A DNA stretch of 64,000 nucleotides from Nemertoderma westbladi (taxonomy: Eukaryota > Animalia > Xenacoelomorpha), in NCBI GenBank assembly GCA_032718475.1, contig JAUCBJ010000343.1, positions 3,762 to 67,761 of the forward strand, given 5' to 3'. The notes below the pieces were generated by a model. That model did not search any database and was not told the DNA's origin. It saw only the letters and a list, made by a program, of their open reading frames with translations. Shown piece after piece: positions 20,271 to 59,928 of this stretch (position 1 is the first letter of the stretch; each line of letters starts with the position of its first letter). The position numbers and the translations under genes were made by a program.

Positions 20271-20857
20271 TGTGAGCGGATTCAATTCCGCCTCACCAAC
20301 CCCCATAAAGTTGGGAAACGGCGCCTTTAAGCAATATTGGGGAATACGAGATTGATTACCAATCAACCTCGTATCACCCCAATAAACGGGGACGACAAAC
20401 CCCCAAAGGGCCGCACACAATAGAGGTCAGAGGTTAAGCCTCCGGGAAAGGGAAAGTGACAGTAGCAAGGGGGAAACACTCCCACAGAGGTGGGATCCGA
20501 GAATTAGGTTATTGGCCAATGGGGGGCAAGCATCGACTGAGTAGTAAGGCCCCAAAGTAAGTAATCAATATATATTACCGGTCAGTGTCATATCACAGTT
20601 AGTTATCTCAGTCATCTAAGGCTGATCGGTGACATTTCTATACCGTCACCACCGTCACCATCATTACCGGTACTACAGTAGAACCATACACTGTAAACTA
20701 ACTACATCATACCATCAACTGTGCTATTGTATCTTATTGTCATATATTTACCGTCTACATTAATATCAGAACAACAACGAACTATTATCTTCCTTTTCCA
20801 ACGGTACGGTGACGCGTAATACAAACTAACCGGTCGGGATCCTCTGATCCCGTCACA
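20271..20857 (+). repeat. 5' LTR of Bel/Pao element 1
   Basis: tgtgagcgg...cccgtcaca, duplicated at 25829-26416. Confidence 0.95.
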
Positions 20858-20911
20858 GTATAGAAATCTAAGGACTGCCAAACTGTGACTGCCAGACACC
20901 AAAGAGTAAAG

Positions 20912-23900: not shown

Positions 23901-24717
23901 CGATTTCTCAATACCAAAGGTGGACGTTAGGAAGGTATCCATTATAGTAGGAATGGACTGCCCCACGGCCCACGAGAGAATGCAGACAGTCTTCGGCGAA
24001 GACAGATAGCGGGATCCGACGGCGATCCTCACGCCGTTCGGATGGACGCTTAGCGGCCCAGTTAAAACCAAGATTCCATCCGGGGTGACGGAGACATCAG
24101 GATGCATGTTACCAGGCACTGTAGACACAGAGGACGAAGAGAAGAAACAGGAGATGGTAGATGAGCAAGACGGGGAAGTAACAGTAGGAGAGTGGGCGGA
24201 GGAGAATGGATTTGATGCGGAAGATTTAGAGGCAACGGGATGGAACAAGGGTCCCAGCAAGTATCGGTATGGAGATGGAGAGGAGCGGACGGCGAGATGT
24301 CCAGAGGATAACCCGGAGGAGTGTCCGGTGGAGTGTCAGGAGGACAATGGTCCGGAGGAGTGTCCAGAGGAGTGTCCGGAAGAGACGCCGGTCCGGTCGG
24401 GAGGCATACCGACAAGGGGGAGATCGAGTAAGAAGACAGGATGGAAAGGGATAGGATTACTATTGTTCGTTCTGTTTTGTCTGTTCTTTCAGTTTCGTTC
24501 CATTCTGCCGCCGGGAGGCGACCAGCCGAAGGGTGGAATTTTGTTGCCAGGAGACGAGGAAGTTAAGAAGGCGGCGGAGAGACCCGATTTTAGGGTGGCA
24601 GAAGAGGGAGAACCAATTCCTGGTGAGTTGGAATTTGCGAAGAGAGTGTGGCGAATCCTACAGGACCTACAAGGGGAGCAGTGGGAGAGTGCCTGTTGGA
24701 AGAATCGCCCTAGTTAG
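20912..24717 (+). pseudogene. Disrupted Bel/Pao gag-protease polyprotein with vestigial pol tail
   Basis: Pieces in several frames: N-terminal ORF 20885-21853; gag core LPPVEPFKFDG...LKYLQVYTGGPA...ALDREYG (22258-23001); knuckle CHRCVVEGHRSGEC; protease LVDSGA; TPFGWTLSGP; then only short pol-like remnants (WNKGP, VPVGRIALV). Confidence 0.8.
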
Positions 24718-25828
24718 GTGAAGTTTAGTCGTCCAATATTTTGGACTGAGGGGGTGGGAATGAGGGCGAGACGCCCTTCCCACACAAATAAATAATTAAA
24801 AATAATTATAAATAATTAAATAACAATTAAGTAGAAAGTTAGAAGTATGAAAGTTAGTAAAAGTAAGTAGAAGTAAGTAGCAGTCAGAAAGTTAGTTAGA
24901 AAGTTAGAAAAATTAGGTTAGAAGTCGGCGGGTACAGGGAGTGTGGTATATAGACATACCACGGGAGTAGAGGGGTACGTGGTACCGTTAGGTTAGAAGT
25001 CGGCGGGTAAGGGAGTGTGGTATATAGACATACCACGGGAGTAGAGGGGTTGTGGGCACCGTAAGCGCCACGTAGAAAGTAGTAGTAGGGGGGTTGTGGG
25101 CACCGTAAGCGCCACGTAGAAGTAGTAGTAGAGGGGTTGTGGGCACCGAAAGCGCCACGTAGATAGAGGTAGTAGCTGAGAGTGGTTGTGGGCACCGAAA
25201 GCGCCACGTAGTTAGAGAGTTCTAGTTAGAGGGCTAGAGAGTTAGTAGACTTCGAGGAGTCGGAGAGTTAGTAGAGTTAGTAGAGTTAGGAGTTAGTTAG
25301 AGTTAGAGAGTTATTAGAATTAGAGAGTTAGTAAGTAAGTAGTAAGAGAGTTAGATAGTAAGTAAGAAGTAAGTAGTAGGTTGATAGAAGGATAGCACAG
25401 GGGTAGCATAAGAGAGTTAGCGCCTTTGAGGGCAGTATGAAAGGAGTATGGAGAGGAGCTGCTGGCGAGAGAGAGTGCGGACGAGTGCGATTCAGGTGTG
25501 GGGAGAGGACAGAGCGGAGTTAGAGTGGAGTTAGAGCGGAGTTAGAGATAGAGTAGAGTGAGAAGTCAGAGTTGAGAGTGAGTTTTAAAATTGTGTGAGA
25601 ATCCACAATCGTCTCGACACGAGACGCCAGATGTCTTGGTGCAACATAGGTTGGAGTTGCACCAAGAGAGGGTAGCGACATCATACCCAGAGGGAGCGGC
25701 CTGGAAAGCCGACTCCAGAGTAAAAGATAACTCCACCCCACACCCGATAGTAGATCGAGTTCCAGCGGAATTGAAGCGCACTCAGAGGTTGATGCAATCT
25801 TCTCACCGGGAAGATAGCATGGGGGGAG

Positions 25829-26416
25829 TGTGAGCGGATTCAATTCCGCCTCACCAACCCCCATAAAGTTGGGAAACGGCGCCTTTAAGCAATATTGGGG
25901 AATACGAGATTGATTACCAATCAACCTCGTATCACCCCAATAAACGGGGACGACAAACCCCCAAAGGGCCGCACACAATAGAGGTCAGAGGTTAAGCCTC
26001 CGGGAAAGGGAAAGTGACAGTAGCAAGGGGGAAACACTCCCACAGAGGTGGGAGCCGAGAATTAGGTTATTGGCCAATGGGGGGCAAGCATCGACTGAGT
26101 AGTAAGGCCACAAAGTAAGTAATCAATATATATTACCGGTCGGTGTCATATCAGAGTTAGTTATCTCAGTCATCTAAGGCAGATCCGGTGACATTTCTAT
26201 ACCATCACCGCCGTCACCATCATTACCGGTACTACAGTAGAACCATACACTGTAAACTAACTACATCATACCATCAACTGTGCTATTGTATCTTATTGTC
26301 ATATATTTACCGTCTACATTAATATCAGAACAACAACGAACTATTATCTTCCTTTTCCAACGGTACGGTGACGCGTAATACAAACTAACCGGTCGGGATC
26401 CTCTGATCCCGTCACA
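25829..26416 (+). repeat. 3' LTR of Bel/Pao element 1
   Basis: Copy of 20271-20857 with a few differences, followed by TSD ATTAT. Confidence 0.95.
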
Positions 26417-27598: not shown

Positions 27599-27720
27599 TT
27601 TTTAATTTCAAATTCTTCTAAATTCAATTGTTATTAATCAAATTTCACTAACATTTAAATAATTTGAATTTTAATTGTATCAATTAGGCATTAATTCAAT
27701 TACAATTGTAAATTAGCAAC

Positions 27721-28884
27721 TGTAAAGGCTTTTGCGGATATAACTAGTCATTTTCCCCGCAAAGTACTCTGTAGGTGTTTTAGCGGACATAAAAAGCCAT
27801 TTTTCTGTATGTGTACTTTAGCGGACATAACAAGCCATTTTATGCCGCAATACGCCAAAATACTCTTAATACAGTGTGGCTTCAGATGACGAAATCTATC
27901 AGCTGATTTTGATGTCGATGTGGAGCTTTCTTAACTCTCTTTGTTCAGCTCACTCGACCAATCAGAGCGATTTTCATTTTATTTGTACAGAAGCCTACGG
28001 GAAATCGCGCAATGCATGACGGTCTTTGTTTACCTTTTTCCTGAGCCCAGAACATCGGCTTTGGAATTATTCTTAGTTTCAGACTTTAGCCAAACATTCG
28101 ACGGCTTTGATTATAGGAACGTATAACTGTTATCGCACCAGACTCATACCAACCTGACCACAAATCAGCTCATATTATACATACCTTTCACCGCATTATT
28201 TTACTGCTATTTACTGTCGGTTATTAATTGTTAGAAGTTGATGGATATGTTGTTATATTTGGAGAATATCGATAAATAATCATAAAACCCCAATCTTCTT
28301 GATATACTGAAGGTTAGAGAGACCGGTTACCTGTAGCAATTGCGACTTACATTATAGTGGTTTTGGAGTGAATTGAATGCTATTTCATAATCCCTACATG
28401 TGTCAGTTACTATTCTCCTTATATATGATCAAATTTAGTGAAGGTCGGCAGATCAGTGTGCAGCAGTGTGCGGTAGTGTGCATGAGTGTGACAGATAACA
28501 AAGCATTTCCTAAAGAATGCGCTTTATACGAAAATCATTAGCCATCCCGTTGTGTTTAGTGTAAGTCATAACTCTGTTTACATACTTAGAGCGCCACGTC
28601 CTAAAGGAACTGTTAATATTTCCCGAAAGTAAATAATATTTGTCAGAGATTATATATTAACGATCAATCGAATAGTACAGTAAGTCTACACCGCAATAAG
28701 GTCAGAGCCTCCGAATCCAGTCTCCCTTAACTGTGGGTGAATGGTCGCGCATAGGCTGGCTTCGGCTAATGTAACTTTATATCTTATATGCAACAAATAC
28801 TTGTTATAGGCTAAAGTCGATTTATAAACTAGAAGACACCTAAAATTAGCGGGTTAAACTGCTAAAGGTCTAAAAGCGCGAACA
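27721..28884 (+). repeat. 5' LTR of Bel/Pao element 2 (1164 bp)
   Basis: tgtaaaggcttttgcgg...aaagcgcgaaca. Tandem ttagcggacataaNaagccatttt repeats near its start; CCAAT at about 27957. Confidence 0.95.
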
Positions 28885-30817
28885 ATAACAGTTATATTAG
28901 TTTCTTTATTGCAACGTAGGCAATAAAGTCGAAAGTACCGGTCGACCGGTAATCTGTAGGCCTAACTACATAACCACCCGAACCGGTACTTACAGCAGTA
29001 CAAGTACAGCAGTATTATTCGATTTTGGTAATTATATACCGGTAGGTCTTGATATTTAATCAGGGACTGCAGCCCTGGTTTTTTATTGGGATTTTACTTA
29101 TTTCTGTCAGTTTTATTTATCTGTAAGTTAATATTGAGCAGAAGGCGTGTAAGCCTGCTCAGATTGTATAAATAATTTGTAGGCTGGATTGTTGTCTGGT
29201 TGTTGTTAAGTCTGAAGAGATTGCAGTGTGTGTAGAGTGTATGTCCGATAAAGTACTAGTTAGGAACGTGGGACATCCAGAGCTGTAAGGTAAATCCCCC
29301 CCCCCCCCCCCCCCCGAAAGAATAAGTCGTACTACTCAGTTAGAACGCATACTAACTAACCATTTCGGAGTCTGCATATACTGTAGTTTATTTAGGCTTG
29401 ATAGTAGTCTGCCAGCGTTTGGTCTGTATTTTGTTTGTGTAGTCTGTACGGGTAGCGTAATATTTATTATTCAGAGTTTATGCGATTATTCGCAACATAC
29501 ACAACCCCAAGTTTATTCCTACAGTAATTGTGCTTGTTATACATACTGTTATAGTTAAATTAACCCCGGCACTACATCAGGGCTGTTTGGCATAGGTAAA
29601 GACTGGTGATTTTATGCTCTAGTCACTCCAGCAGATACCGTGGTTCTTTTAGCTGTACAAGTATTTTTAACTGCTGGTTATTTGTTGTATAAGTACTTGT
29701 ACCTAATTTAGGGTTTAGTGTACAGTGCTTTCCGAAGGTAATTAGTTTGTAGGCAGTATATTTGTGTTGTAAAGTGGTTAATAGGCACGTTAGCTATAGT
29801 TGGCTGCGGTAATTAACTTCTAGGTAGGAACACTCCGGGTACATAACGTAGTACTTATAGAGCTGTAAGCTAGAGACTATAAGTCGTCAGACGGTGGTAT
29901 TTTCTTATCTAGACAACGCAATATATTTACTACTGCTTAATTATTTTCAAATACCGTAGTATCCTGTCCGTTGTAAAAACCAGAAATTCTAACCCCTTGT
30001 TAGGCTGGTTTGTAGATTTCTTGTAAAATTAACCCTAAAATTTGTACGTGTAATTTTTGTGTTTATTTAGAGATTGTAATCTCATCCCTTAATTGTACGT
30101 AATTTGTAGTAATAAGTAACTTAATAAATTAGAATTATTTGTTTTAGTGTCCAATAAGTAGCACTCCACTGAGAGCGTTCAGCTTCTGTGAAGTGACTCC
30201 TTATCTAGAAATAATAACATTTATTTCGAATATTGTCAAAACCCATTAAACGGGTATATATATTATATTATAAATCAACTCAAACCGATTTACATAATAG
30301 TAGGCCTGTTATACATAAATTAGGTCTTAATATCAGTTGGACTACTGCTTAAATAACGGTAATAAAGTGAAGTAAAGTAACTAGGTAACCCTAAAATTCA
30401 GAAATTCAATTATTCTAAAATAATTGACATACCGGTATTTACGATAGGCTTATTATATTTATTCTATAAATTTATGCTGAAATTATATACCGGTATTCTG
30501 TAATTAATTTAGTCTATAATTATACTTATATATACTACAAGTGTAAGCTGTATACCGGTATTCACGGTAGGCTTATTATATATTTATATATATTTATGCT
30601 GAAATTATATACCGGTATTCTGTGACAAACCCTAGTCTGTAATAATACATATATATATACTATAAGTGTATACCGGTATTCTAATATATTGTATATATAT
30701 CACGTTACACTGAGTAACGATATCGGTAATTAATTACTAGGCTTTTAATTGATACTGAATTACTAGACTTGCTTTAACTGTAGTTCTAGCAGTAGGCATT
30801 CAACTGTACAAACAAAC

Positions 30818-33800
30818 ATGGCTGACACAAAGCAAAACCTGTCAGACAGTCTCCTAGATACAACCATCTGTGATCCAGATAGGAGTGCGGAACGTTTGAG
30901 ACCGAAGTTCAACTCCCCTCCTACTGTAAGAAAGGTCATCCCTCCAGTAGTAGTATCAGACCCTAGGCTAGTAAAGTACCGTAGGTCTATCATAGGCACT
31001 CGGGCTCAAGTCAAGCGGGACCAAGAGGCAGCTGTTAAACAACAGCAACACCCGAGCCGAGAACTTATTTCTCAGCGGCCCAATAGCTCCAGTAGTTCAG
31101 ATACTGTAGAGTTGACACCCGAGCGCGGAGCAAAGATGGCAGAAGCGGTTTATTCGGATCCACTTCTCATTCTTCCTGCAGCCGTACTCACTAGGGTATT
31201 GATTGCGGTGGAGGAACACCAAATGGATTGGGCGAGAAGTAAGCGATCAACCAAGGACAGTTATGCGGGATACACAAGGGAGGAACTGAAGTCTATTGTC
31301 GAGACGCAATGGAACTTCCCCAGACCCAGACTCCCGTTTAACTTATCGGAAGCTGCCTGGGAGGACTTATACAGGATGGGAGTGGTAAGGGCACAAGAGA
31401 TCCAGCTGTGTGGAAGAGGTTGGCAGCAGGATATGTACAGGGATTCTTCAGCTCTTTGGAGCGATTAGAGGAACAACTGTTTCAACAACCCCAAGGACCT
31501 CAAGAGCAGGGAGAGCTGCTTTATCAAGTTCGAGAACGTATCCTAAGAATCAGACTGATCCTATCGGCCTTTGAGGAAGCTTCGAAAAGAGGCCAAGACA
31601 CGTTGTTGCAAGTTGCCGTAAAGACTTGGTTCCAGCGGGTGGGTCTCAAAGTTCAAGGAACGTCCCAGTGGAAATTTCAGTTGGCTGAGCGCTCAACCCA
31701 CGGAGAATCAACAGACGCTACCTTTTCTCAAGTGGAAAGCGAAGCGACAGCAGAGAAACCTCAGAAGAAGGACGCTATTGACATATATCTGTCGGACTAT
31801 CAACGATTTCTAGGTGACGAAGAGTTGAGGAGACGGCTGGCTGGACTTCGTCCTAATAGTGAACGAGCCAAGTTTGTGTTGGACGCAATAGATGCGGAAA
31901 GGTTAGAAGCGGATCGAGCTAAATTTGATGAAAGAATCCGCATCGTTAGGGAACAGGAAGAACAATTAAAGAAAAAACAAATAGAAGACAGAAAGGCAGC
32001 AACAGCAGCAGCGGCAGAAGTGAAACGAAAAGCTGCAGTAGCAGAGGCAGAAAGAAAAGCGGCAGCGGCAGCGGCAGAGGCAGAAAGAAAAGCGGCAGTG
32101 GCAGAGGCAGAAAGAAAAGCGGCAGCGGCAGAAGCCGAAAGAACTGCGGCGGAGGCAGTGTTAGAAGCAGAACGGAAGGCATCTGAAGAGACAACCCAAC
32201 TAGAGTTGGAAAATCTTCAAGAGAAGCAAGACTACTTAAATAAACAGATAACAGCTAGTCAGATGCAGCTGATAAGTCGATCTACTCCCAAGCGACAGGG
32301 ATTTACATCATCTGATGAAGGCGAGACAACAGATCCTGAAGGCGGAGGAAATAGATCTCGTCTCAGCAGGCGTAGAAGAACGCCTCACCGTCAGAAATTG
32401 CCTAATTTGCCCCCAGCCGTGAGAAGGCAACTAGCTAGCACAGACTTAGGTAGTACAGAACCCACAGACCAAATTATTAGAGTTGAAAGACTCCCTACTA
32501 TAGTAGATGAGCCTGAAATAATTAGACCTGTTCTCGAAGCCACCCCTTCTGTGATAGAGACCCCTGTACTTCCAGAACCTAACTCTAAATTCCCTTTGCA
32601 CAGTACTAAACTACCTGTATCCAGTAGGACAGTTCCTCAGTCAACTCTGGTCCTGGACGCCGAGCGAGACATTAACAATTTGTCACCCGTCGTCCCTCGT
32701 CTACCCGCTACTATGTTGGCGGCTCCCGCTTCGGCGGTAGAGTGGGTGGATGAGCGACGGCGGGGGATGGATATTCTCCTCGGGCAGATAGAGGAGAATC
32801 AGGCACGCTCCTCCCAGCAGGTCCGAGAGTTGGAGGGGACTGTTCAACAGTTAAGGGGAACAGTAAGAGAGAGTAGGTTAGAATTACAGGAAGTGCAGCA
32901 GAGTATCGCGTTAGAATGAGATAAGTTAGTAAATCTACAAAAGGGTGTACCACCACCCTCTGTAACAATGTGTCAACCTGTTAGGTCTGAAGTATTTCAT
33001 GCGCAAGGTGTGGAGCCTACACGCCTCTATACTGCTAGTGAAGTAGAAACTCCTATAGTAAACCCTAATAAGGGTAATTATAAACCTGTTGGCAATGATA
33101 TTCCATATAGACCTGATAATAATCCGAGAAATTTATATACCGATAACTCGATATTAAATAATACGATGGCTCAAGAAAGTTTTACGCGTCAAATGGCTAG
33201 AACTGAAGCCCGTCAAGCGGTAAAGGTGGGAGAGATCGTCAAGTTCAATGGAGATGAGATGAAATGAAATGGTTACCATTTAATGAATATTATAAAGATA
33301 ACATACAGAACTCTGTGCTATCTAACGGAGAGAAACTTAGATTCCTCATCGAGTGCTTGGAAGGATCTCCCAAGTTAATGGCGTTAAAGTTTATTGGACA
33401 TCCAGATGGATTAAGACAAGTTTGGGATACACTAAACATCAGGTATGGTAATAGGAATAACATAGCTAGGTATTTGTATGCGAAATTGGTAGCGCCCCGA
33501 AAGTTTCTTAGCAGCGGGATTATAGAATTTTCCGATGAAATCCAGGAGATTTGTAGACAATTAGATTGGCTAGGTAAGTCTCATGAATATCAGAGTTCTA
33601 TGGTTATTGGAGCTGTAGCATCTACCTCGCCAAAGGGTGGAGTGGGTACTCGTTGGGACAAAAGAGTTCTATATATAATGGAACAACAACGAAGAGACCC
33701 TACCATGGCTGATCTCATGTCATTCTTGGATGGAGAGGTAAAATTACAGCTCCTAAAGCAGTCCAGAGAGAAGACACCGGAAAATAAGGTAAGTGAGAAA

Positions 33801-36800
33801 CCCGTTTCTAGGAGAAAGGTAACACCAGTGTGTTATACAGATGATGGCGAAAGCCAAACCTCTCAAGAGGAGAGCAATGGGAAAGACACTGAAAGATCTT
33901 ACTATGTCAACAAAACACCAAAGGATGTAAGTAAATTTAAGTCTCGAACCAGTGACAGGAGAGAACAGACAACAAAAACTCCTCCCACGTCTCCTAAGAG
34001 AGTTCATGGAAGAAAGCCCGAGGAAAAAACGAGTGTGCACAACACTACCCAAGGTAAAGTAAGTAACATCAAACCAAAATGTGCTTTGTGCGACGGGCCC
34101 CACCGTTTAAGTGTGTGTGAGGAATTCTTAAAGAAATCCCTGAAGGATAGACGCGAAGTCATGTGGGATAAGCGGTTGTGTTATAATTGTCTCAGACAAG
34201 GACACCAACGGCGAACCTGTTACTCCGACGCAAGGTGTGTGAAGTGCGGCACGAAACATCATATTTTGTTGCACACCGAATTCGAAAGAAACAGCCCGAG
34301 TCAAGTAAGTGAGTCCGAACTACATGTCCAATTCAGTGATGTGAACGACACTGACCTCAGTTCTGAGATGGAAGGATTCTACACGGATGAATTCTCCGAC
34401 GAAAACAAATCCTGTTATCTAATAAACACCGCAGTGTATCGAGCACTTACGTATGAGACTGAAACTGATAGTGAGCTCCCCCTAACTATTCCAGACCGAC
34501 AACCATCTTGGAAAGCGCCAACTTCCAACGTAGGAATCCGAGAATTTCCCGTAGTGCAGTTGAGAGTCCACGGGTTAGAAAAGAGCTATATAGTGAACGC
34601 CCTCCTTGACTCCGGCAGCACAGGAACATTCATCGACAAAGAACTAGCCGAAGACATCTTTGCTGGACAACCCAAGTTCCGAACTAAATTGAACCTTTCA
34701 GGAATTATGCAGGTTTGGAAATCTACAGTAACTACAGACTACTATGTAGGCGCGTTGTCCACCCCCCAGGATGAACTAGGAGAACACAGTATAAGGTCAG
34801 TAAAAATGGTGGCGATAAAGAACTTCGCTACCAGCCAAGTGAAACCTTATAACTGGGATGAAGACGATTTCACCCAGCAGCATGAGATACCTAGATTCAA
34901 CACCGACTACCCAGGGGTACAAATACTCATCGGCCAAAATGCGCATGAAGCGCTTGAGACATTATAGAAATGGCCTGCTCAACCGCAACCACTGCAAACC
35001 TATGCGGGAAGAACCAGAGTAGGTTGGTACTTTACTGGAAAGGCTACCTAAAGAGCAAGTCTACCAGGTGAGTGAATGGGAAGGGGAAATCAGTGAAGGA
35101 GACGACACACCTGAGGGAACACCATATTCCTCAGACAATGACGATATTAATCAACTATTCGACAAGGAGAATACCATCGACCTCCTTACGGAAAGTGAAA
35201 CTTGGCAAAACCAAGTGAACCTGTGTCACCTCATCCATCCAGCGGGACAAGTCGATTACAACAACGAACTGAATGAAGTGATAGATCGTTACAACGCGAA
35301 GACTCGCGATGAACACGCCGTACGATTCTTTACTCAAGAGGCTGTAGAGCCCAATTCCTACGATAAGGCCCTATCGGTAGAAGAGGAAAGAGCCAAGCAG
35401 ATACAGGAAACGACTACACGTTTTCTTAAAGATCAAGGTAGGTATGAGATTGGTCTGCCTTTCCGACGGCAACCCAATTTTATAAACAACCGACCCTTGG
35501 CGGAGAAGAGAATTGCGCAACTCCATCGATGCCTTACGGCAAATGCTTCAGCTAAGGAGATGTACCAGACCCAGCTGAAGAAATTCATTGACAAGGGATA
35601 TGCGGAGCGAGTACCGGAAGAAACACCTATAACTGAGAGAACGTACTATTTAACACATCATTACGTTCCCAAACCCGGTAAACCCAACGAAGTCCGGGTA
35701 GTATTTGACGGCTCTGCCCTCTACATGGGACAATCCCTTAACTCCGAGTTGTTGCCGGGACCCAACTTACTCCAATCCTTGTTGGGAATACTCTTAAGAT
35801 TACGACAATATTCGATCGCTTTCGCCTCCGATATAGAAGGCATGTTCTTACAAGTTAAGGCGCTGGATAAGGATCGGGACAGCCTACGATTTCTGTGGTG
35901 GCCTGAAGGAGACCTCAACCAGAAACCGGTGGAGTACTGGATGACCATTCAGGCTTTTGGGATCATCTCGATATATACATGGACGACAATTTAAAGTTCC
36001 TCCCATCAGTGGAAGAAGCCATTGATGTCGCCAAAGGAACGGTAGAGTGCTTGAAAAGAGGTGGATTTCGATTAACTAAATTCACCAGTAACTCCCGTGA
36101 ATTTCTGGAATCGATCCCGGTAGAAGACCGAGGAGTTAAAGATCTAGACCTTATCAAGGACGATCTTCCAGAAACCAAGACGGTTGGTTTGAAATGGGAC
36201 ACAGAGAGAGATATCCTGTTTTTCCAGCTAAAACAGCGAGATAATCCAGTTCGGACTAAATGGATTTGTCTAAGTATCCTGAGCACTTATTTCGATCCAT
36301 TGGGATTTATTAGCCCAGTTATATTGATTGCTTGGAGTTTAGTACAACAAATGTGGCTTGAAAACCACTCGTGGGACGATCCACTTAAGGGAGAACTATT
36401 AAAGAAGTGGATGAAATGGGAAGATTCTCTACCATCTATCGAGAATTTTACGATTTCCTGTTCATATTTTGGTCATGTTCTCCCCACGTATTCCTACCAA
36501 CTCCATGTGTTTGGAGACGCCAGCGATATGGGAATAGGTATAGTAGCCTACCTGAGAGTTGAAACTCCGGATGGAATTAAGGTCGCCTTGGTTACCTCTA
36601 AGGCCTTGATAAACAACAAGTTGAAAGTTCCTGGAGCGGAGTTAAAAGCAGCTCTATACGCTACGGCCATCGGCCGGAATGTAACAGAACAGATCGACTA
36701 TCCACTGGAGAAAACTGTCTATTGGACCGATGCTTTACTCGTGTTGGAGTATATAACCAATGAAGTCTGTCAGTTCAGCGTCTTCATTACCAACAGAGTA

Positions 36801-38861
36801 GCCATTATACTTAGTCGCACGAAGATAGATCAATGGAGGCATTGCCCTGGGACGATTAATCCAGCCGACATCGCCTCCAGGGGAGCAACTCCACAAGAAC
36901 TGATAGATACTCCAGACTGGTTAGGTGGACCCGACTTCCTAAGCAAGGAAGAGGATGAATGGCCTCCTCATCTTACTACGGCGGAGATTAGACAAGCCAA
37001 GGGAGCGGAGAAAGTCAAACCTAAAACCCGGGCGAGTAAATCGAAGTTATTTAAACCCGTGATAGATCTGTCTGTACTACACACTTCCGGAGACGACGTT
37101 TTGGATCCAAAATCCCCAGCCACAAACAAGTCTGTTGTGGAAATCAGAGAGAGAGATTGGAAATCTGGAACACCAGACGTCTCGCAGGGACTCTCACCCC
37201 TCCTGCAGAGAGCGATACATCACTATAGCTCCTGGAATCGGCTTTGTAAGGCTGTTGCTTATTTAAAGCGATGTTTTCATCATCACTACTCCAGGACGAA
37301 GATCGCTAGTGATGCCGCTCCACTGACATCTGCGCAGGTCCATGTTGTTAAAGATCTTCCCAAATACAAGATATCAGACAGATTTCTGAAGGAGAGGATC
37401 AGTTACCAGGAGCATGAAGAAACAAATAAGCAGATACTGAGACTCCTGCAATGCTATGAGGATTCCGATAAGTATTTCCTATTGTTGAGAAATCCACAGA
37501 TGCGCTTAAGGGATCGTTTCTCTAGCACAATGATAGATGGGTTAATACGCGTTGGAGGAAGACTAACTAATGCTCCATTATCCTTTGACACTAAGTTTCC
37601 CATACTCATTAGAAATCTTGAAATACAAATCAAGATGATTGTAGATGTTCACAGTAAGCTTTACCATGCTGGTAGAGAACGAGTTCTTAGCGAAATTCGA
37701 ACTCGCTATTATTTTCATAAACCCCGTAGAGCTCTGAACCAAGTTCTTAGGAACTGCATACCCTGTAGGAAAGCATTCAGTAGGCCTTTAACACAGCGAG
37801 AGACAGAATTACCTAGGGAACGAGTAAGCTTCTATGAACCACCCTTCACAAATACCGGTGTGGATTTATTTGGCCCTATTGAAGTATATCGTGCTAGGAC
37901 TATAGTCAAGAGATGGTGTGTCATCTTTGTCTGTATGACTTGTAGAGCTATCCATCTCGATATGGTGAACGATCTATCTACCAACAGCTTCATACTGAGC
38001 TTACGCCGACAGATCGCTCGCTTTGGAACTAGTAACACGATGAGATCTGATAAGGGAACGAACTTCATTGGTGCCAACAATGAAATCAAGGCTTACGTCA
38101 AAGATTGGAACCAAAGACAGGTGGACGATCAGCTAAGGGTAACAGCGTCTAGCTGGACCTTCAACGCCGCCGACGCCCCTTGGTGGGGAGGAAGTTGGGA
38201 GAGATTAATCAGAAGCGTGAAGACCGCATTTCACTTTATAGTGCCGTGCCGCGTGTATCTCACCGACGAACTTTTGCGGACGTTAATGGAGGAAATCGCC
38301 GCCTATCTCAACGAGAGACCGCTTATGCCAGTCTCATCGAGTCCCGATTCCCTGGAAGCGCTAACACCCACGCACTTCCTACTGAAGAAACCTGTAGCCA
38401 TGCTCTCACGATCGGAAATCACGGACGGAGACGAATACTGCCGGCAAACTTGGCAACTTATGCAGTTGTTATCCTGTCGTTTCGCTGACCATTTCGAAAA
38501 ACATTATCTGCCTACGCTACAACTTCGAACTAAGTGGTTTGCGCAGCAAGAAAGCGTCAGCGCCGGAGACATGGTCCTTATTGTGGAGTCAGATCTTCCA
38601 CGTAAGCGGTGGCAGACAGGTCGTATCATCGAGACTCATATCTCAGATGACGGTTTGGTGCGATCGGTAGAACTCGTCGTCATGCGACGTAACTTTAAGA
38701 AACCTGGAATTGTGTTCGAAACACAACAATTCAATCGCCCAGTTGGTCGTTTATGTTTACTGGAAAGAGACAGAGAACTCTCCGGAAACTATAGAAGGCA
38801 AGATACTCTTCCCACGACCACCTCCCTAATCCAACCAACACCCAGGGACTCCCCAACGTAA
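30818..38861 (+). pseudogene. Bel/Pao gag-pol polyprotein with at least six lesions
   Basis: Coiled-coil N-terminus (KAAAAEAER repeats); three Cys-His knuckles (CALCDGPHRLSVC, CYNCLRQGHQRRTC, CVKCGTKHHILLH); protease LLDSGS; RT VRVVFDGS/DIEGMFLQ/YMDD; RNase H LHVFGDAS, YWTD, NPADIASRG; integrase HAG...CIPC, GVDLFGP, SDKGTNF, WWGGSWERL. Stops or frameshifts near 31460, 32917, 33265, 34965 and 35049, plus a deletion just before YMDD (about 35965). Confidence 0.92.
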
Positions 38862-39383
38862 CAGTGTCTGGAGTGGGTGTGTGACTATATTATTTTATAT
38901 ATTTTATTATTTTTATATTTATGTGTGTATTATTATGTACTCTTATTATAATCGTTTTCTTTAATTTTATTTAGTAGAATGTTGTTCTAGCGATTATCTA
39001 GTAGATTAGTGCAATATATATTAGTCTTATTACTTAATTACTTATATATTATATATTTAGTGCGACGGCGAGAAATAATTATTTTTCTCTTTCCTTACTG
39101 TCCGTATCATATTATAAATGCGTGACTACAGTAAGATGAAATATCCGTACTTATTAAAGTACAATAAAGCTCCTACTATACTCAAGTATTATTGGTAAGT
39201 TGAGTATTAGGAATGCAAAATTCAGATCCTCGTGTCTCGGCTAAACCAAGCTCTGGGTAGACCTTGGAAACGACTTGCCTCTTCTCACTGGCATTGCTTC
39301 TTGCAATATTGCTCTCATACCGTATATTAAATAATACATATAGTAGCGTGATGTCCCTTTAACAGTAGCGTAAAACGCAAAAT

Positions 39384-39760
39384 AAATCTGTTGAACCCTT
39401 TGACCATCTGCAATTCTAGTCGATTAAGATATCGCGGCACCCACCGATATACTTGAAAGGCAAAATTCTAGAATCAGTGGTTAACGTCCCCAGACATGTT
39501 CTGGAATAAATCGGTGCCCATCTTAAATATTAACTATTAATATTTATAAAATCTGTCAAACAAATACAATATAGTAAATACTTACAAGTTAACTCTAGAA
39601 AATCTATAAATTAAAATCTGTCAAATTTTAGATCCTTTAAAATTCTAGTCGATTAAAATATCGTAGCACTTACCAATACTCTTAAAAGGACAAATTTCCT
39701 AGAATCAAGGATCACAGTTCCCAGACATGCTCTGGAATAAAATTGTGCTTATTCCAACAT
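39384..39760 (+). ncRNA. Tandem pair of putative structured cis-acting RNA elements in the pol-ORF3 spacer
   Basis: Two diverged copies about 230 bp apart keep the same helices through compensatory changes (see findings). Confidence 0.5.
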
Positions 39761-40564
39761 TAAATAATAAAATTTACGGGAATAAATTTAAATTCATCTC
39801 TTTTAATGAATTTGATAAATTGTCATTTTTATACAATTTATAACATTCCCAAAATTCCATTAATTAATAGATCATGGGAGCGGAGATTCACCCTATTAAG
39901 TATATTAGTGTGCGAGAATCTCCAATATATAGTCAATAGCCGATAAAATTTCATAAAATCATGTATAAAGGGGATATTGACAATTAAAGAATTACTATTA
40001 AATAGCATCCCAGATCTGTATGCATGGGAATTACCCTAATTCTACTGCTAGCTTTCCATAATGTCACCATAGCAACAACCACGCTAGAATTAGAAGCGAG
40101 TTAAAAGAACAATAGAAAGCTTGCCCCATTGAATAGCATACGGAATAAATAGCACCCTGCTAGTATCCAGGGATACATAATAATAACGTGGCATTCTGGA
40201 AGGCACTTTACTAACAGACAAATGGCCCGAATGTGTACAATTTGTGACAGGAGTGTGGAATTTGTGTATTTATAGGTGAATGTTACTACTAAAGTGTGTT
40301 TACAGTAGCGAGTCGCAGTTGTGAAAGTAGCCCTAACTCTGCAGTAAGAACCTGAAGTAAATCTAAGCCTTTGGGACGGACAGTGGAGTGACTCGCGCTG
40401 GTTATCATTGTCGTTGTGTAGCTACTACGTTGGCGAAAAACACAGCAACGACGGTACATCGGCGCTGAGGATCTTGCACTGTCCGGGTGCCGTGAGGGGT
40501 AGGCAGCAAAGCCCGCTAGCCTAATTATAACTAATTATAATATTGATAAACTCATCTAGCAGCT

Positions 40565-43500
40565 ATGACTGAGTTGATAGAAGATGATCTTGGTATCAGG
40601 GAGCGATATACTCTACCGTTACAAGCGTTTGTTGATAGCTTAATACGCGGCGACGCTAGCCCAACTACTACGGAATCCGCTGGTCTTTATATCGAACCGC
40701 CAATGTCCCAGGAGCAACTCACGCGTGAATTGGACTATAGAAAATTCACTGCTCGCTATACGCATCATAATGGTACGTATATGGACTTCTTAACTACTGG
40801 CCATCCTATCGATTTACACGACACGGACGATGTAGACACCGAAAGGGAAATGGTTTTATTTAAATATCATACCCAGCAGAGTCGGAACGATAAACCGAGA
40901 ATAGAACACGAGAATTCTATTCGAAACCGACTCGAAAGAGAAGAAGTTGAAGAGCCGGATAAATGCAGCGACTTCAACGATTATCTGGAATTCTTGAGAG
41001 AAACATATCTCAATATTGCCAGTCAACAGAATCTAGAAACTCGATATCCTCAAGGTATACATCATGACCCCATGATAGAACTCAAACGGCTCTATTTCAC
41101 CATGATGTATCTTACCGCCGATCGTCCACTACCTGTTATCCCGGATAGTTTTGAACAAATGGAAGAATATTGTAAAACTGGAGAACGATCACCCGCGTTT
41201 CCCTTGCAAGACGTGCGTCTTTGGTATTACTGTGATGAATGCCCTAGACCCAACCAGCAAACGGAAAGACATAAACATCCGCGGAGACGTTGCGCTAAAC
41301 ACAGTTTTACTCGTTATACCTATGGGAGTTTCGAGCGAAACTTGTTCGACGTATCACCTACGCTCGCTCGACTCAAACGATCCTTAAATAAACCCATGAT
41401 CAGAGTTCCGGAATACTTGGTCAGACCTCCTCATTCCTTAGTGAGACCTCAAACGCTTGATCCTAATAGTATAACGGATCCCCCTGAATTGTACTCACTA
41501 TTTAAAGATCTTGTGTTACCCGAACAATTAATCGGTGGCACTCCGGTAGTGGACTCGCTAGATATTCGCCCATCCTATCTAGCCGGATTGGGACGCGGGC
41601 ATCTAATATCGCCGTTCAACCCGTACAATCGTCCCGGTTTAACCCCGATACAACCCGTCACCGAAGTCGAGGAGAGCGTTGTACGAAACGCGTTAGACGC
41701 TATTCGGCAGAATATCGGAAAAGGAACTTACGATTGTTTAGAGAAACGCAAATTGCAGCAACAAGTCCAAGCGGTGAAGGAATTAGCTTTACCCCAGTTC
41801 GATCGAGAAATCCAGAACCTCGAGGAAGACATCGATCTTGGACGAACCTATTCTCTACAAGAGTTCCTAGATGAGCGTTTACAACGACAAGCGGAGGAAA
41901 ATCAGCTCGAGGAGAAACACATAGAAATGGATGAGAGAGAAGAAGCAGCTTTAGCCCAGCCAGAAGCTCAAATCCTTATGACTGATCTCTATTCTAAAAC
42001 CATCATTCATCCTTCGATGGTTCCCCATTTCGGAGACAAACTCTTCGCCACGGCACAACCTCAACTGGTTGATATCAACCTAAGATCTCGAGATCTTATC
42101 GCTGACGCTCCTATGTTGCAACATCCGCCTATCGAGGCCGCTCGTGTCAACGGTATACTCGTTGAACCTCCGGACAATAGAGCGGATCTTGTCCGTCGTA
42201 TGGTACACGAGGTTAACATACGCGCTAGACCTTTACCGAACTCGTTTTATGGGATCAAAGATCACCCTTATTATGTCAATCTAACTCAATATTACATGGT
42301 AAAACCGGAAGATCCTACACATAGTCTAAGGTTTCTACCACTAATAAATCCTCTCGATCTTGTCGAACTCGAACAACTGCAGAAACATCTGGATCAGTTA
42401 GTGAAAGTAAACTCATTCCGAAAACCCTATAATGTTTCCAGAATAGAGAAGGATATAATACCTCCGTATAATCTCGATGGATTTATCAAAACTCGATTAG
42501 TCCACTGGAATCTCGACGTGTTATTCGAGGAGGAGAGAATACAACGATATGGAGATGTAGAAACATATACTACACAGTATTTGAAGTATAGAGATCTACC
42601 TAACGCTAGCGAATGCACCACCTTGTGGCATCCAGTGGGAATGACCCTAGAAAACGCCACTAAAGAGTGGAACGAAACACTTAACGTTATAGAGATGTAT
42701 GGAGTTGTCACTTATGATAACGAAGGTAGCGTTCTGGTTGGAGAACTGGGAACTACGCGCATGATACATATACGAGGACTAGCTGGTTCTACCCACGTAT
42801 TTACTCAAGCATGTTCCGACGTGATTGATTATTCTTTTGAGACCCTCACCGAGATACAAAAGAAACTCCGACATGGACAATTCGAACTCGTGCAGCGTTA
42901 CGTCACTGACACCGAGCGCAAACCGGCCATGGGTATTGATGGATCGATGTTACCCCAGCCCGTGCTCGAGATGTTGTTTAACGAAAGAATCCTTAAAATC
43001 GGCTCAGCTGTTTATGGAGATCTCCAAAATGACTTTAGGAACATGGAGAATATCCCATATCCTTTCGTAGATACTCAGCTGATTGCTCCCTGGGCAGAAG
43101 GCCGAGGTTTCTTCCGCACTATGTATGCCAATACACCCAGCGGTATCACTAAAGTACAACGAACCTCCATCGGACATCTTGCCTTTCAAGAATACGGATG
43201 GAATTTCAAGGTCGGAAATCCTATCAACTATCAACAAGTATATGGAGATCATTATTCTCGATTATACTTCGATGGACCATTGACCGCACCTGGTGTCGTG
43301 TATAGCTTCATGAGTGTTCCACTTCGTCCCTCCTTAGCTATATACACGATCTTTGAAAACGCCACACTTGCCGGTTGGCTAGCTGATGTGTGCAGTCGTA
43401 CTATACGCGCCCATCCCTTAATACTTGGAACCAAACTCGCCAAGCTAGATGAACACAATAAATTCATCCGCTTCGAATGTTTCAGGCGCTTTCTGACTCC

Positions 43501-44770
43501 GTTCCGTAACGTTGATAGTCAGTTCAAGGACCGCGCTCTGACCAAGCTCAGACTAAGAGCTGAGAAGTTAGACAGCGCTGGATTCGCCATTTTCCAGGAT
43601 GTTTGTATACAGAACTTACATTCCTCTGTTATACAAAGACCTCGAATCCCCACGGGTTATTCTATCGTGGAAGTTCAGACAGCGGGTTCGCTTGAGGAGA
43701 CAGCCACACCTATCTCAGCTATGCAACTGGAAGACGAACCAATATGCTTAGAATCCGAGGAGATTCAGCCTACAGCGCCCCGGAGCAGCGACAACGACTA
43801 CGTCTTGGAATGGTATCAAGGTCCACAGTGTCTCACCGCATACAATTATCGGCATGCCAACTATGTTTCTCGAAAACGTTGCCGATTATGTGCATCGAGA
43901 GATCATTTCACCCCCATGGACTCAGACGTACCCTGCTCCTATTTCCATGAACAACCGGCGATGGAGATCTATTGTGCGTATTGCAGACTCAATAACTTGC
44001 ACATTTTCGCAGTCTGGCCCCAATTTATGACTCAATGCCATCATTGTCAACTTAAAGGACATGCCAGTTTTGATTGCCCTTTTAACCGCGATCTGGAAAG
44101 CGTAGATGTAATGACTACCCTACGCTACATCCGAGCTTGGGAAGCGAATGCGGATTTACATTGTGAGTCACGCCATCGCTATCCTTATCTATTCGCGTCT
44201 GTTGAACAAAAATCACGCACACCGAGTTACGAACTAATGAAGCGTGTTGGTGAGTGTATTTCAACCAAATTTGTTCGTAAATATCTCAGGAACATTAATC
44301 CTAATGATATTAATTCCTATAACTTGATTAACTTCATCCGTCAAGATCCGGAGTATGGCGATTTGTTCATCAACTCGCATCCAGAGTTACAGGAAGTGCA
44401 TCGACGGCCCTACAAATATCGAGCCCGAGAACGCGAGTTGGAAAGAACCATTAAACAGAGGAAGTTTCTCACTACCCATGGTCCACCCACCGCTCTCATT
44501 CAGACGACTCATCAGGGACCAGTAAGAGCTGCTGTCCTGAAACGCGCTCTAAAGGCCATCCGACCTCGCTCCACTGAGGTTGATATCGATCAACCAGGTA
44601 CCTCGACCGGCGGATACACCGACCATAATCCTAAACCTTCCGATGCAATTGTATTGCACCCTTCACCCAGGAGTTATAGCCCTCCTAGTAAAGTGGCTCG
44701 CCCCAAAGAGAAAAGGACTCTTGCTAGCCTCAAAAAACTGCGTAAACGCCGTCCGCTCAAGAAAGACTAA
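40565..44770 (+). CDS. Accessory ORF3 of the Bel/Pao element: 1401 aa with a DnaQ-like (WRN/EXD/Mut-7-type) 3'-5' exonuclease-like domain and C-terminal zinc knuckles
   Basis: Intact ORF between integrase and the 3' LTR. ExoI VVTYDNEG (D718/E720); LPQPVLEMLFNERILKIGSAVYGD (D819); FVDTQLIA; TSIGHLAFQEYG; candidate ExoIII PLRPSLAIYTIFE. Cys/His clusters CRLC...H...C, CAYC...H and CHHCQLKGHASFDC. Confidence 0.75.
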   Translation: MTELIEDDLGIRERYTLPLQAFVDSLIRGDASPTTTESAGLYIEPPMSQEQLTRELDYRKFTARYTHHNGTYMDFLTTGHPIDLHDTDDVDTEREMVLFKYHTQQSRNDKPRIEHENSIRNRLEREEVEEPDKCSDFNDYLEFLRETYLNIASQQNLETRYPQGIHHDPMIELKRLYFTMMYLTADRPLPVIPDSFEQMEEYCKTGERSPAFPLQDVRLWYYCDECPRPNQQTERHKHPRRRCAKHSFTRYTYGSFERNLFDVSPTLARLKRSLNKPMIRVPEYLVRPPHSLVRPQTLDPNSITDPPELYSLFKDLVLPEQLIGGTPVVDSLDIRPSYLAGLGRGHLISPFNPYNRPGLTPIQPVTEVEESVVRNALDAIRQNIGKGTYDCLEKRKLQQQVQAVKELALPQFDREIQNLEEDIDLGRTYSLQEFLDERLQRQAEENQLEEKHIEMDEREEAALAQPEAQILMTDLYSKTIIHPSMVPHFGDKLFATAQPQLVDINLRSRDLIADAPMLQHPPIEAARVNGILVEPPDNRADLVRRMVHEVNIRARPLPNSFYGIKDHPYYVNLTQYYMVKPEDPTHSLRFLPLINPLDLVELEQLQKHLDQLVKVNSFRKPYNVSRIEKDIIPPYNLDGFIKTRLVHWNLDVLFEEERIQRYGDVETYTTQYLKYRDLPNASECTTLWHPVGMTLENATKEWNETLNVIEMYGVVTYDNEGSVLVGELGTTRMIHIRGLAGSTHVFTQACSDVIDYSFETLTEIQKKLRHGQFELVQRYVTDTERKPAMGIDGSMLPQPVLEMLFNERILKIGSAVYGDLQNDFRNMENIPYPFVDTQLIAPWAEGRGFFRTMYANTPSGITKVQRTSIGHLAFQEYGWNFKVGNPINYQQVYGDHYSRLYFDGPLTAPGVVYSFMSVPLRPSLAIYTIFENATLAGWLADVCSRTIRAHPLILGTKLAKLDEHNKFIRFECFRRFLTPFRNVDSQFKDRALTKLRLRAEKLDSAGFAIFQDVCIQNLHSSVIQRPRIPTGYSIVEVQTAGSLEETATPISAMQLEDEPICLESEEIQPTAPRSSDNDYVLEWYQGPQCLTAYNYRHANYVSRKRCRLCASRDHFTPMDSDVPCSYFHEQPAMEIYCAYCRLNNLHIFAVWPQFMTQCHHCQLKGHASFDCPFNRDLESVDVMTTLRYIRAWEANADLHCESRHRYPYLFASVEQKSRTPSYELMKRVGECISTKFVRKYLRNINPNDINSYNLINFIRQDPEYGDLFINSHPELQEVHRRPYKYRARERELERTIKQRKFLTTHGPPTALIQTTHQGPVRAAVLKRALKAIRPRSTEVDIDQPGTSTGGYTDHNPKPSDAIVLHPSPRSYSPPSKVARPKEKRTLASLKKLRKRRPLKKD

Positions 44771-44847
44771 CTGTTTAGAGTATTTTTATATTTTAGAAAC
44801 TGTGATTTTTATATTTTATAGAATTAAATCCCATTTTCTGGGAGCGG

Positions 44848-46065
44848 TGTAAAGGCTTTTGCGGATATAACTAGTCATTTTCCCCGCAAAGTACTCTGTA
44901 GGTGTTTTAGCGGACATAAAAAGCCGTTTTTCTTACTGTGTAGGTGTTTTAGTGGACATAAAAAGCCATTTTTCTGTATGTGTACTTTAGCGGACATAAC
45001 AAGCCATTTTATGCCGCAATACGCCAAAATACTCTTAATACAGTGTGGCTTAGATGACGAAATCTATCAGCTGATTTTGATGTCGATGTGGAGCTTTCTT
45101 AACTCTCTTTGTTCAGCTCACTCGACCAATCAGAGCGATTTTCATTTTATTTTGTACAGAAGCCTACGGGAAATCGCGCAATGCATGACGGTCTTTGTTT
45201 TACCTTTTTCCTGAGCCCAGAACATCGGCTTTGGAATTATTCTTAGTTTCAGACTTTAGCCAAATATTCGACGGCTTTGATTATAGGAACGTATAACTGT
45301 TATCGCAGTGCCAGACTCATACCAAACTGGACACACAAATGCAGCTCATATTATACTATACGTAACTTTCACCGCATTATTTTACTGCTATTTACTGTCG
45401 GTTATTAATTGTTAGAAGTTGATGGATATGTTGTTATATTTGGAGAATATCGATAAATAATCATAAAACCCCAATCTTCTTGATATACTGAAGGTTAGAG
45501 AGACTGGTTACCTGTAGCAATTGCGACTTACATTATAGTGGTTTTGGAGTGAATTGAATGCTATTTCATAATCCCTACATGTGTCAGTTACTATTCTCCT
45601 TATATATGATCAAATTTAGTGAAGGTCGGCAGATCAGTGTGCAGCAGTGTGCGGTAGTGTGCATGAGTGTGACAGATAACAAAGCATTTCCTAAAGAATG
45701 CGCTTTATACGAAAATCATTAGCCATCCCGTTGTGTTTAGTGTAAGTCATAACTCTGTTTACATACTTAAAGTGCCACGTCCTAAAGGAACTGTTAATAT
45801 TTCCCGAAAGTAAATAATATTTGTCAGAGATTATATATTAACGATCAATCGAATAGTACAGTAAGTCTACACCGCAATAAGGTCAGAGCCTCCGAATCCA
45901 GTCTCCCTTAACTGTGGGTGAATGGTCGCGCATAGGCTGGCTTCGGCTAATGTAACTTTATATCTTATATGCAACAAATACTTGTTATAGGCTAAAGTCG
46001 ATTTATTAACTAGAAGACACCTAAAATTAGCGGGTTAAACTGCTAAAGGTCTAAAAGCGCGAACA
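44848..46065 (+). repeat. 3' LTR of Bel/Pao element 2 (1218 bp)
   Basis: Copy of the 5' LTR with one extra about 41-bp repeat unit and a small indel cluster. Preceded by GGGAGCGG, followed by TSD GCAAC. Confidence 0.95.
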
Positions 46066-46766
46066 GCAACAATCAGACAATTAGGCAAATTATAAATATT
46101 TCATTAACTATATAGACAGTACAAACAAAATAAAGAAACAATAAACAAAACAAAGTATAGTGTACAAAAGGCACTAAACAATTAAAGATTACAAAACTCG
46201 ATAAACAATTAGAGAATTAAAGAGTACAAAATACAATAAACAATTGAATTGAATTAAAGTAAACAAACAGCAATACAACACTACAGTACCAGTACCAGAA
46301 AGACATTTTATTACATTTCTATGAACCCTAGTCATCATATCCACCTAACCAAAGTTGCATAAGAGAGGTTTCTAAGAAAATATTATGAAACTAGTGTCAT
46401 AAATAGGGAAACGATTGGCCCACGCTAATTTCAGCTATCCGCTCGCTGCATGACATGTTATTTAGTACACCTTGCTGAGGCCTAAGCGTTTTGCATGACA
46501 TTTCTCTCGTATCTCATCTGGACCAATCAGGAAACAGTATTCGACTACGCGTATGCATACGCGTATGTCAAAGCGCTCAATGTAATGTATAGATTCGTGG
46601 TTACGTCAGAACATACGTGGATACGTACGGCGTACTGTATGTTGAAAAGTAAAACCCTTACATCAGTACCGGTATACTGCAGCACTGGCTGACTCGTGCT
46701 GTCGTGGTACGCCTACCGCAGTACCGGTACAGCAGTAACAGCATACAGTGCAGCAGCGATACAGAA

Positions 46767-55784: not shown

Positions 55785-55809
55785 GGGGCGTAGACGCTGT
55801 GCAGACATA

Positions 55810-59867: not shown

Positions 59868-59885
59868 TGGTGACCCGGACGAGAT
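59868..59885 (+). promoter_or_regulatory. Primer-binding site complementary to the tRNA-Trp 3' end
   Basis: TGGTGACCCGGACGAGAT one base after the LTR CA, close to the tRNA-Trp PBS TGGTGACCCCGACGTGAT. Confidence 0.75.
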
Positions 59886-59928
59886 TTGCTACCACCCGAT
59901 AACCGGAACAACCAACGTCACGATCGCG

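Follow-up and report, generated by a model that had tools for sequence, protein, structure and literature searches.

The closest described parallels to the gene reported here are the third open reading frames (ORF3s) of the bdelloid rotifer elements Juno, Vesta and Terminons, which encode DEDDy exonucleases with a DEED acidic set and undemonstrated activity (Rodriguez et al. 2017, PMC5408684, excerpt), an account repeated in PMC6431247, PMC5718144 and PMC6338049 (excerpts). Bel/Pao elements, in the profile of the International Committee on Taxonomy of Viruses (ICTV; PMC8742986), measure 4.2-10 kb, use a tRNA primer and carry at most an env-like third gene, and the survey of de la Chaux and Wagner (2011, PMC3118150, excerpt) capped full-length elements at 15 kb. 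Self-priming has been described in Tf1/sushi, Tcn1 and TAR (PMC6317226, excerpt). This study concerns an 18,345-bp Bel/Pao-type retrotransposon with long terminal repeats (LTRs), located in 64,000 nt of Nemertoderma westbladi DNA (GCA_032718475.1, JAUCBJ010000343.1); this whole stretch is called the window, and all coordinates follow its numbering. The element carries a 1401-amino-acid (aa) ORF3 that can be regarded, with fairly high confidence, as a selected accessory gene with a DEDDy-like domain.

A sequence-only reading of this DNA had proposed an exonuclease ORF with zinc knuckles in the env position and had pointed to a bdelloid precedent, which proved to be real. No exonuclease ORF of a Bel/Pao element was found in the literature, although subscription journals, Repbase entries and supplements might hold one, and the word "exonuclease" is absent from the excerpts of PMC3118150 and PMC13524379.

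Position and probable maintenance of ORF3

The frame of ORF3 runs uninterrupted from ATG to stop between pol and the 3' LTR (Table 1), bearing out the sequence-only reading on this point. Its highest 19-residue hydropathy is 1.17 and its N-terminus is acidic; therefore, the protein appears to have neither a transmembrane segment nor a signal peptide. Identity as an env glycoprotein, which the earlier reading had also denied, was ruled out on these grounds.

Parts of the stretch occur in five public runs, and positions 40250-46100 were surveyed for copies in four of them. Matching contigs numbered 35,143, 12,008, 528 and 186 in the four runs, with 30 of 30 bins covered, and many copies were 80-99% identical to the ORF3 stretch. 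In run X1, 6,087 contigs were at least 99% identical, 11,369 fell at 95-99%, 13,492 at 90-95% and 4,195 below 90%. Depth of single contigs ranged from about 25 to more than 7,000 within one run (summed read depth was not taken as copy number), and the ExoI motif of the exonuclease domain was covered by pieces at 82-87% identity. ORF3 is thus a multi-copy family gene and not a one-off capture.

The copies also tend to keep the reading frame. From about 48,000 pieces 32 were listed, one of which was dropped as lying upstream of the ORF and a few of which represent one variant in two runs; gap totals were divisible by three in 28 of the 31 listed pieces within the ORF, which span 8,993 nt with 1,406 substitutions (about 16% divergence). 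Only three of the 12 listed indels fell inside ORF3, though it makes up 72% of the surveyed stretch. Of the 40 listed substitutions, 38 fell inside it. Among listed variants segregating in other copies, 15 of 18 were silent compared to 29% expected (binomial p = 2.5e-6), whereas 4 of the 20 listed variants private to this copy were silent (Fisher p = 2e-4 versus the segregating set). This pattern fits purifying selection on active lineages combined with neutral decay after insertion, and ORF3 is likely kept by purifying selection. With a high-copy family and a clear silent-site bias, it is likely that ORF3 pays its way.

Two observations weigh against this view of selection. The variant tables cover small subsets that the tool had selected (40 of 1,659 substitutions and 32 of about 48,000 pieces), and high-depth internal deletion derivatives have lost the exonuclease and knuckles, with joints at 40933-43729 and 41916-44421, the latter in frame and fusing approximately aa 451 to aa 1286. 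Since these derivatives reach high depth, the exonuclease domain is dispensable in cis. No listed contig bridges ORF3 to pol or an LTR; linkage of ORF3 to the element in other copies is drawn from the present copy and from the near absence of run-on into dissimilar sequence (0-1% in runs X1 and X3). The open state of ORF3 beside a broken gag-pol was not counted as evidence because the LTRs are 99.5% alike and some of the breaks could stem from assembly errors.

A probable DnaQ-like domain

The motifs quoted in the sequence-only reading were all found in place: VVTYDNEG (starting at aa 714), LPQPVLEML (796), GSAVYGD (813), FVDTQLIA (834), TSIGHLA (867), PLTAPGVVY (905), PLRPSLAIY (919) and the knuckle CHHCQLKGHASFDC (1158). 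An ESM Atlas feature search with aa 680-980 returned PF01612 (DNA_pol_A_exo1) clusters in 25 of 30 matches, with a top score of 0.93. RNase D models of NCBIfam match aa 798-843, the ExoII stretch, at E 0.003 (TIGR01388) and 0.015. In addition, a DEDDy profile was made from the exonuclease domains of 13 bacterial RNase D and polymerase proteins (12 picked from 60 plasmid matches listed, plus E. coli RNase D), and ORF3 aligned with it over ExoII at E 0.002.

One homologue adds to these matches. A HMMER scan of 1.84 billion representatives with ORF3 aa 202-1401 gave a single match, P0001 (648 aa, E 7e-5), a singleton from a 9,449-bp contig that holds both modules of ORF3, the putative exonuclease and three Cys/His clusters. 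P0001 matches PF01612 at E 0.2 on the matching stretch and aligns with the 13-domain profile from ExoI through ExoII at E 2e-6. When ORF3 and P0001 were compared with that profile as a pair, the hhalign score was 42.7, a value reached by none of 200 column shuffles (maximum 22.4).

Several results weigh against assignment to the family. Atlas matches of ORF3 shared 156-164 features, slightly under the 170 typical of true PF01612 members; no Pfam exonuclease match was obtained for the whole of ORF3 or for the domain alone; the hhalign probability for the pair was 80% over just 52 columns; and AlphaFold2 models had a predicted local distance difference test score (pLDDT) of 30.4 (aa 640-1039 alone) or 27.7 (P0001 with ORF3 as second row). 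The TIGR01388 score of 16.9 bits lies far under the cut-off, and a sequence search of the PDB with the domain gave one chance match only. As ORF3 is below every curated cut-off, it is classed as DEDDy-like and not as a PF01612 member. It is placed in no subfamily, the WRN-exo/EXD/Mut-7 pattern of the earlier reading being a candidate label. An insertion of approximately 45 aa separates ExoI from ExoII. Several weak lines agree and none is decisive, but together they indicate that aa ~700-945 very probably form a DnaQ-like domain, much as the earlier reading had proposed.

Other searches returned little. Word-based protein searches found no relative among 5,725 candidates of length 770-2452 (aa 600-1200) or among 862 shorter proteins (aa 670-990, longer proteins not being searched), and P0001 alone among 7,989 candidates with the ORF3/P0001 alignment. 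Locus scans of viral, metagenome and prokaryote contigs revealed no relative; PHROGs gave only matches of unknown function (E 0.08-0.2); tblastn against phages gave no match and against plasmids only matches at E 4-10. The rotifer ORF3s did not surface in the HMMER scan, and no direct comparison with the rotifer ORFs was made. The two best Atlas clusters for the ORF3 domain are giant-virus clusters, by which no origin is shown. For P0001 the best cluster (0.86) is a euglenozoan family that combines PF01612 with zf-CCHC, and an EXD1-like cluster scored 0.77; both are leads only and show no origin.

Predicted active site and zinc knuckles

At ExoI, D718/E720 align with D62/E64 of P0001 and with the DTE of the 13 references, and the site ranks second within ORF3 by position-specific scoring matrix taken alone. 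At ExoII, D819 aligns with P0001 D130 and with the conserved Asp in both TIGR01388 and the 13-domain profile. At ExoIII, Y229-x3-E233 of P0001 ranks first of 625 positions, and two registers compete in ORF3: compared to P0001, Y927/E931 has 9 identities in 25 and a BLOSUM score of 29, while Y913/S917 has 4 identities and a score of 1. The Y927/E931 register is preferred because P0001 is a closer homologue than the bacterial references. Other results count against it, however: by the bacterial references Y913 ranks 5th and Y927 22nd of 1378 positions, MAFFT and global hhalign pick Y913, which puts Ser in the last acidic position, and a strict Asp is absent in either register, the last acid being Glu instead of Asp in both ORF3 and P0001. 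The earlier choice of the second ExoIII candidate therefore stands as the likelier one against P0001 but not against the bacterial references. Although only 25% identical, the two proteins share all five catalytic-type positions, and the predicted acidic set in ORF3 and P0001 is likely D-E-D-E-y, whereas the alternative ExoIII register would make the site dead.

Three Cys/His clusters follow the domain, as the earlier reading had noted, and the last is a canonical CX2CX4HX4C knuckle; the middle one has only three of four ligands in this copy. This defect looks private, since nearly all other copies differ at that codon. The knuckle region matches zf-CCHC_3 in Pfam (E 2.7e-4), and in a PDB sequence search the ORF3/P0001 profile meets knuckles only, including those of HIV-1 nucleocapsid (NC) and Air2 at E 0.004-0.04. 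For aa 1-699, Pfam and NCBIfam gave no match and PHROGs gave two (E 0.08-0.09), in agreement with the earlier description of this region as unrecognised. The basic C-terminus may contain a nuclear localisation signal. ORF3 lacks internal repeats and matches nothing else in the window.

Element structure and primer site

Self-comparison of the window places the element ends at 27721 and 46065, flanked by a 5-bp target-site duplication (TSD; Table 1). Between the 5' and 3' LTRs there are 6 substitutions over 1163 aligned bases, together with 10 gaps, nine of them in the 5' LTR; at 99.5% likeness the insertion is young, and part of the small indels in this copy may be assembly errors. Pfam matches in gag-pol are DUF1759 (1.5e-9), Peptidase_A17 (2e-32), Integrase_H2C2 (1.4e-7) and DUF5641 (1e-19). 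The order of Pol domains is protease, reverse transcriptase (RT), RNase H and integrase with Pao-type markers; Asp_protease_2 is weak and a YMDD motif is present, while the RT stretch, broken in this copy, had no RVT match in the Pfam scan. A scan of metagenome contigs with pol found no relative. The TG...CA LTRs, TSD, Pao-type Gag and Pol domains and polypurine tract (PPT) agree with the Bel/Pao type, whereas the size of 18,345 bp, compared to 4.2-10 kb in the ICTV profile, and the lack of a tRNA primer site do not. Judged by these features, the element is an atypical Bel/Pao type. ORF3 and its spacer make up one third of the excess length.

Table 1. Positions of the features of the element, its ORF3 and the neighbouring element in the window
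Feature	Position	Strand	Basis or remark
Second Bel/Pao-type element, 6.1 kb, 587-bp LTRs 99% alike, 5-bp TSD	20271..26416		Pao-like gag and protease remains
5-bp TSD, left copy	27716..27720	+	Identical to 46066-46070
5' LTR, 1164 bp, TG...CA	27721..28884	+	Self-comparison with 3' LTR
12-nt LTR segment, candidate self-primer	28122..28133	+	Complement of first 12 nt after LTR
Primer-site position, no TGG; pairs with LTR 28122-28133	28885..28896	+	
gag-pol, Bel/Pao type, six stop-free stretches in shifting frames in this copy	30767..38861	+	Pfam and reading frames
Non-coding spacer, 1.7 kb, with 76% direct repeat	38862..40564	+	Self-comparison and motifs
Accessory ORF3, 1401 aa, ATG to stop, uninterrupted	40565..44770	+	ORF calling
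N-terminal part of ORF3 (aa 1-699), unrecognised, with one Cys/His cluster (aa 223-246)	40565..42661	+	
DnaQ/DEDDy-like 3'-5' exonuclease domain (predicted), aa ~700-945; D718, E720, D819, likely Y927, E931	42662..43399	+	Sequence comparison
Three Cys/His clusters, aa 1106-1171; last a canonical CX2CX4HX4C knuckle	43880..44077	+	
Basic C-terminus, possible nuclear localisation signal	44681..44770	+	15 K/R in last 60 aa
PPT, 9 nt, directly before 3' LTR	44839..44847	+	
3' LTR, 1218 bp, TG...CA	44848..46065	+	Self-comparison with 5' LTR
5-bp TSD, right copy	46066..46070	+	Matches left copy

The spacer before ORF3 has an acceptor-like 3' end, with CTAAT at 40521 and 40531 and AG at 40558 and 40561, and could be used as a promoter or splice acceptor. 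Imperfect direct repeats occur in non-coding DNA upstream of ORF3 (39412-39776, 76%) and upstream of gag (30429-30681, 85%). The spacer holds a further, identical copy of the 9-nt PPT at 39875-39883, and a purine-rich tract at 38867-38882 followed by TGTG stands immediately after the pol stop. The two may represent, respectively, a central PPT and what is left of an older 3' end that predates the gain of ORF3.

The leader that follows the 5' LTR has no TGG of the tRNA type in its first 141 nt. Instead, the first 12 nt of the leader complement an LTR segment perfectly, a match equalled in 9 of 5000 block shuffles and at none of 684 other internal positions, and we infer self-priming of the element. 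The same LTR segment also holds a TATAA word. At the run X5 loose end at 46065, another copy has a leader that departs from the present one at 4 of 12 positions in the primer site, and the following bases are conserved. Run X5, possibly an RNA run, was not counted as evidence of expression. The second element contains no RT and no ORF3, yet its leader (20858-20867) complements its own LTR (20634-20643) over 10 nt beginning at the first base after the LTR (17 of 5000 shuffles). The self-priming signature is therefore not tied to ORF3 in cis; the earlier suggestion of a link holds for the reality of the self-complementary, non-tRNA site and is weakened for its association with the exonuclease.

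Proposed function and alternatives

Mut-7, Nibbler, EXD1 and Rrp6 act on small or structured RNA ends. ORF3 may be expressed from a separate, probably spliced transcript and hence act in trans; its zinc knuckles would bind RNA, and its DEDDy-type 3'-5' exonuclease, likely active with the acidic set D-E-D-E, would trim or destroy the RNA 3' ends that host silencing uses, to the benefit of the element. Separate expression fits the layout, in which a distinct ORF follows 1.7 kb of spacer that ends like a splice acceptor, and rotifer ORF3s have been described as separate spliced units in an excerpt that also names Mut-7, EXD1 and Rrp6 (PMC5408684). RNA is favoured as the substrate because the knuckles resemble the RNA-binding knuckles of NC and Air2. 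Against such a role, the rotifer DEDDy ORF3s show no clear link to copy number (PMC5408684, excerpt). Taken whole, an active RNA 3'-end trimmer that counters host silencing is a plausible but tentative mechanism. A more ambitious form is doubtful: the Bel/Pao lineage would have built its own small-RNA trimmer, a new protein family with P0001 in which an active D-E-D-E-y exonuclease is joined to three knuckles and a 700-aa domain, disarming piRNA and siRNA guides or maturing the self-primer and so enabling a very high copy number in an 18-kb element. If true, it would be an enzymatic suppressor of silencing encoded by an animal retrotransposon.

There are several potential alternatives to silencing suppression. 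The exonuclease could serve replication by trimming element RNA to give the self-primer 3'-OH, or by processing other RNA or cDNA ends, which is unlikely but draws on several observations: the 12-nt complement, which begins directly behind the LTR, exceeds chance expectation, a folded-back RNA requires a precise 3' end, the NC-like knuckles could bind element RNA, and 3'-end processing has been proposed for rotifer ORF3s (PMC5408684, excerpt) and Dada transposases (PMC3706591, excerpt). However, ORF3 is outside Gag-Pol, the leader of the run X5 copy departs from the complement, and the neighbouring element has its own complement without ORF3, though, being non-autonomous, it could be helped in trans. 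The Tf1 primer, moreover, is generated by the RNase H of the RT.

It is similarly unlikely that the DnaQ fold is catalytically dead or weak and that ORF3 binds RNA as a decoy or scaffold, like EXD1 and Maelstrom, which are named as inactive DEDD derivatives (PMC5408684, excerpt). Such a loss would accord with the register favoured by the bacterial references, with the Glu that replaces Asp even in the favoured register and with the insertion between ExoI and ExoII, but the closest homologue backs Y927/E931, and a dead domain would rarely keep all four acids across 25% identity. A different fold altogether, with knuckles and convergent motifs, is a rather remote explanation; although the low-pLDDT models and the lack of Pfam exonuclease or PDB sequence matches would suit it, four partly independent searches converge on one family and stretch, and a plasmid RNase D is among three weak tblastn matches (E 10).

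The sequence-only reading had also raised a proofreader for the RT that permits an unusually long genome, for which no support was found and which we consider very improbable. The element is indeed long, at 18.3 kb versus 4.2-10 kb (PMC8742986), and DEDDy domains act as proofreaders in polymerases of the A and B families (PMC5408684, excerpt). Nevertheless, ORF3 is not fused to RT, ORF3 with its spacer accounts for one third of the excess length, the knuckles suggest RNA, and Ogre and Burro elements reach 25-30 kb in a review whose excerpted text makes no mention of an exonuclease. Finally, a one-off transduced host gene or neutral passenger, which would fit the mostly non-silent private changes of this copy (16 of 20, as in any inserted copy), is largely refuted and hardly credible given the many divergent copies in four runs, the intact frame at about 16% divergence, the silent bias in shared variants, the lack of introns and a third-position GC of 0.43, near that of pol (0.46) and unlike that of two non-LTR ORFs of the window (0.30).

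Other features of the window

At 59868-63749 lies a GC-rich Gypsy element with an ordinary TGG primer site; its gag has 220 aa, and its pol (RVT_1, RNase H, rve) is open over 1052 aa. An open 908-aa ORF at 56834-59560 (-) has no Pfam match and is, by eye, presumably a Mutator-like transposase with a SWIM-type finger, while a 195-aa ORF at 1713-2300 (+) holds what we take, also by eye and unverified like the previous label, to be a fibrinogen C-terminal domain. An intronless 1012-aa ORF at 6734-9772 (-) has scattered C2H2 fingers and an acidic repeat tail. Tandem arrays occupy 11888-13977 (62-bp unit), 48872-52271 (21-bp), 53248-55454 (63-bp) and 55703-56295 (12-bp), and the ORFs predicted at 53-55 kb arise from the 63-bp array.

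Comparison with known systems

These findings make testable the question of whether animal retrotransposons encode enzymes against small-RNA silencing or for their own RNA ends. They also indicate that Bel/Pao elements can reach nearly twice the stated family size, and surveys limited to 15 kb may miss such elements. In common with Belpaoviridae, the element has the LTR ends, 5-bp TSD, Gag and Pol markers, order of Pol domains, PPT and a third gene at the env position (PMC8742986; PMC3118150, excerpt). Whereas the family profile gives 4.2-10 kb, a tRNA primer and a third gene that is at most env-like (PMC8742986), the present element has 18.3 kb, no tRNA site and a non-env gene.

Cellular DEDDy RNA exonucleases (RNase D, Rrp6, Mut-7/Nibbler, EXD1/EXD2 and WRN-exo; PF01612) share with ORF3 the ExoI DxE, ExoII, the D-T-Q segment and a candidate ExoIII pattern of the form aromatic-x3-PL-x6-Y. 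ORF3 differs from them in the Glu at the last acidic site, the ~45-aa insertion, the absence of HRDC or helicase domains and its sub-cut-off scores. Tf1/sushi elements belong to another superfamily, and Tf1 is understood to need no accessory exonuclease; the likeness to these self-priming LTR elements is a primer site that pairs with the element's own LTR (PMC6317226, excerpt). The Dada DNA transposons of Laccaria and Ectocarpus are likewise mobile elements with a DEDDy exonuclease, but there the domain lies within a DDE transposase and retains DEDD, compared to a separate ORF with D-E-D-E here (PMC3706591, excerpt).

The bdelloid ORF3s of Juno, Vesta and Terminons resemble the present gene in being non-env ORFs after pol with no transmembrane segment or signal peptide, a DEDDy exonuclease, an altered acidic set and the same proposed roles (PMC5408684, excerpt). 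They belong to dUTPase- and GPY/F-bearing lineages, whereas the carrier here is Bel/Pao, and their acidic set is DEED as opposed to D-E-D-E (PMC5408684, excerpt). In addition, ORF3 of N. westbladi differs in its 1401 aa, its 700-aa unrecognised N-terminus and its three Cys/His clusters. The rotifer carrier lineages are Ty3/gypsy-like. For the low-copy rotifer elements neither selection evidence nor function has been described, while the Bel/Pao family is high-copy with a silent-site bias. Compared to the rotifer cases, the Bel/Pao carrier, the combination of exonuclease and three knuckles, the evidence for selection and the size of the element are new.

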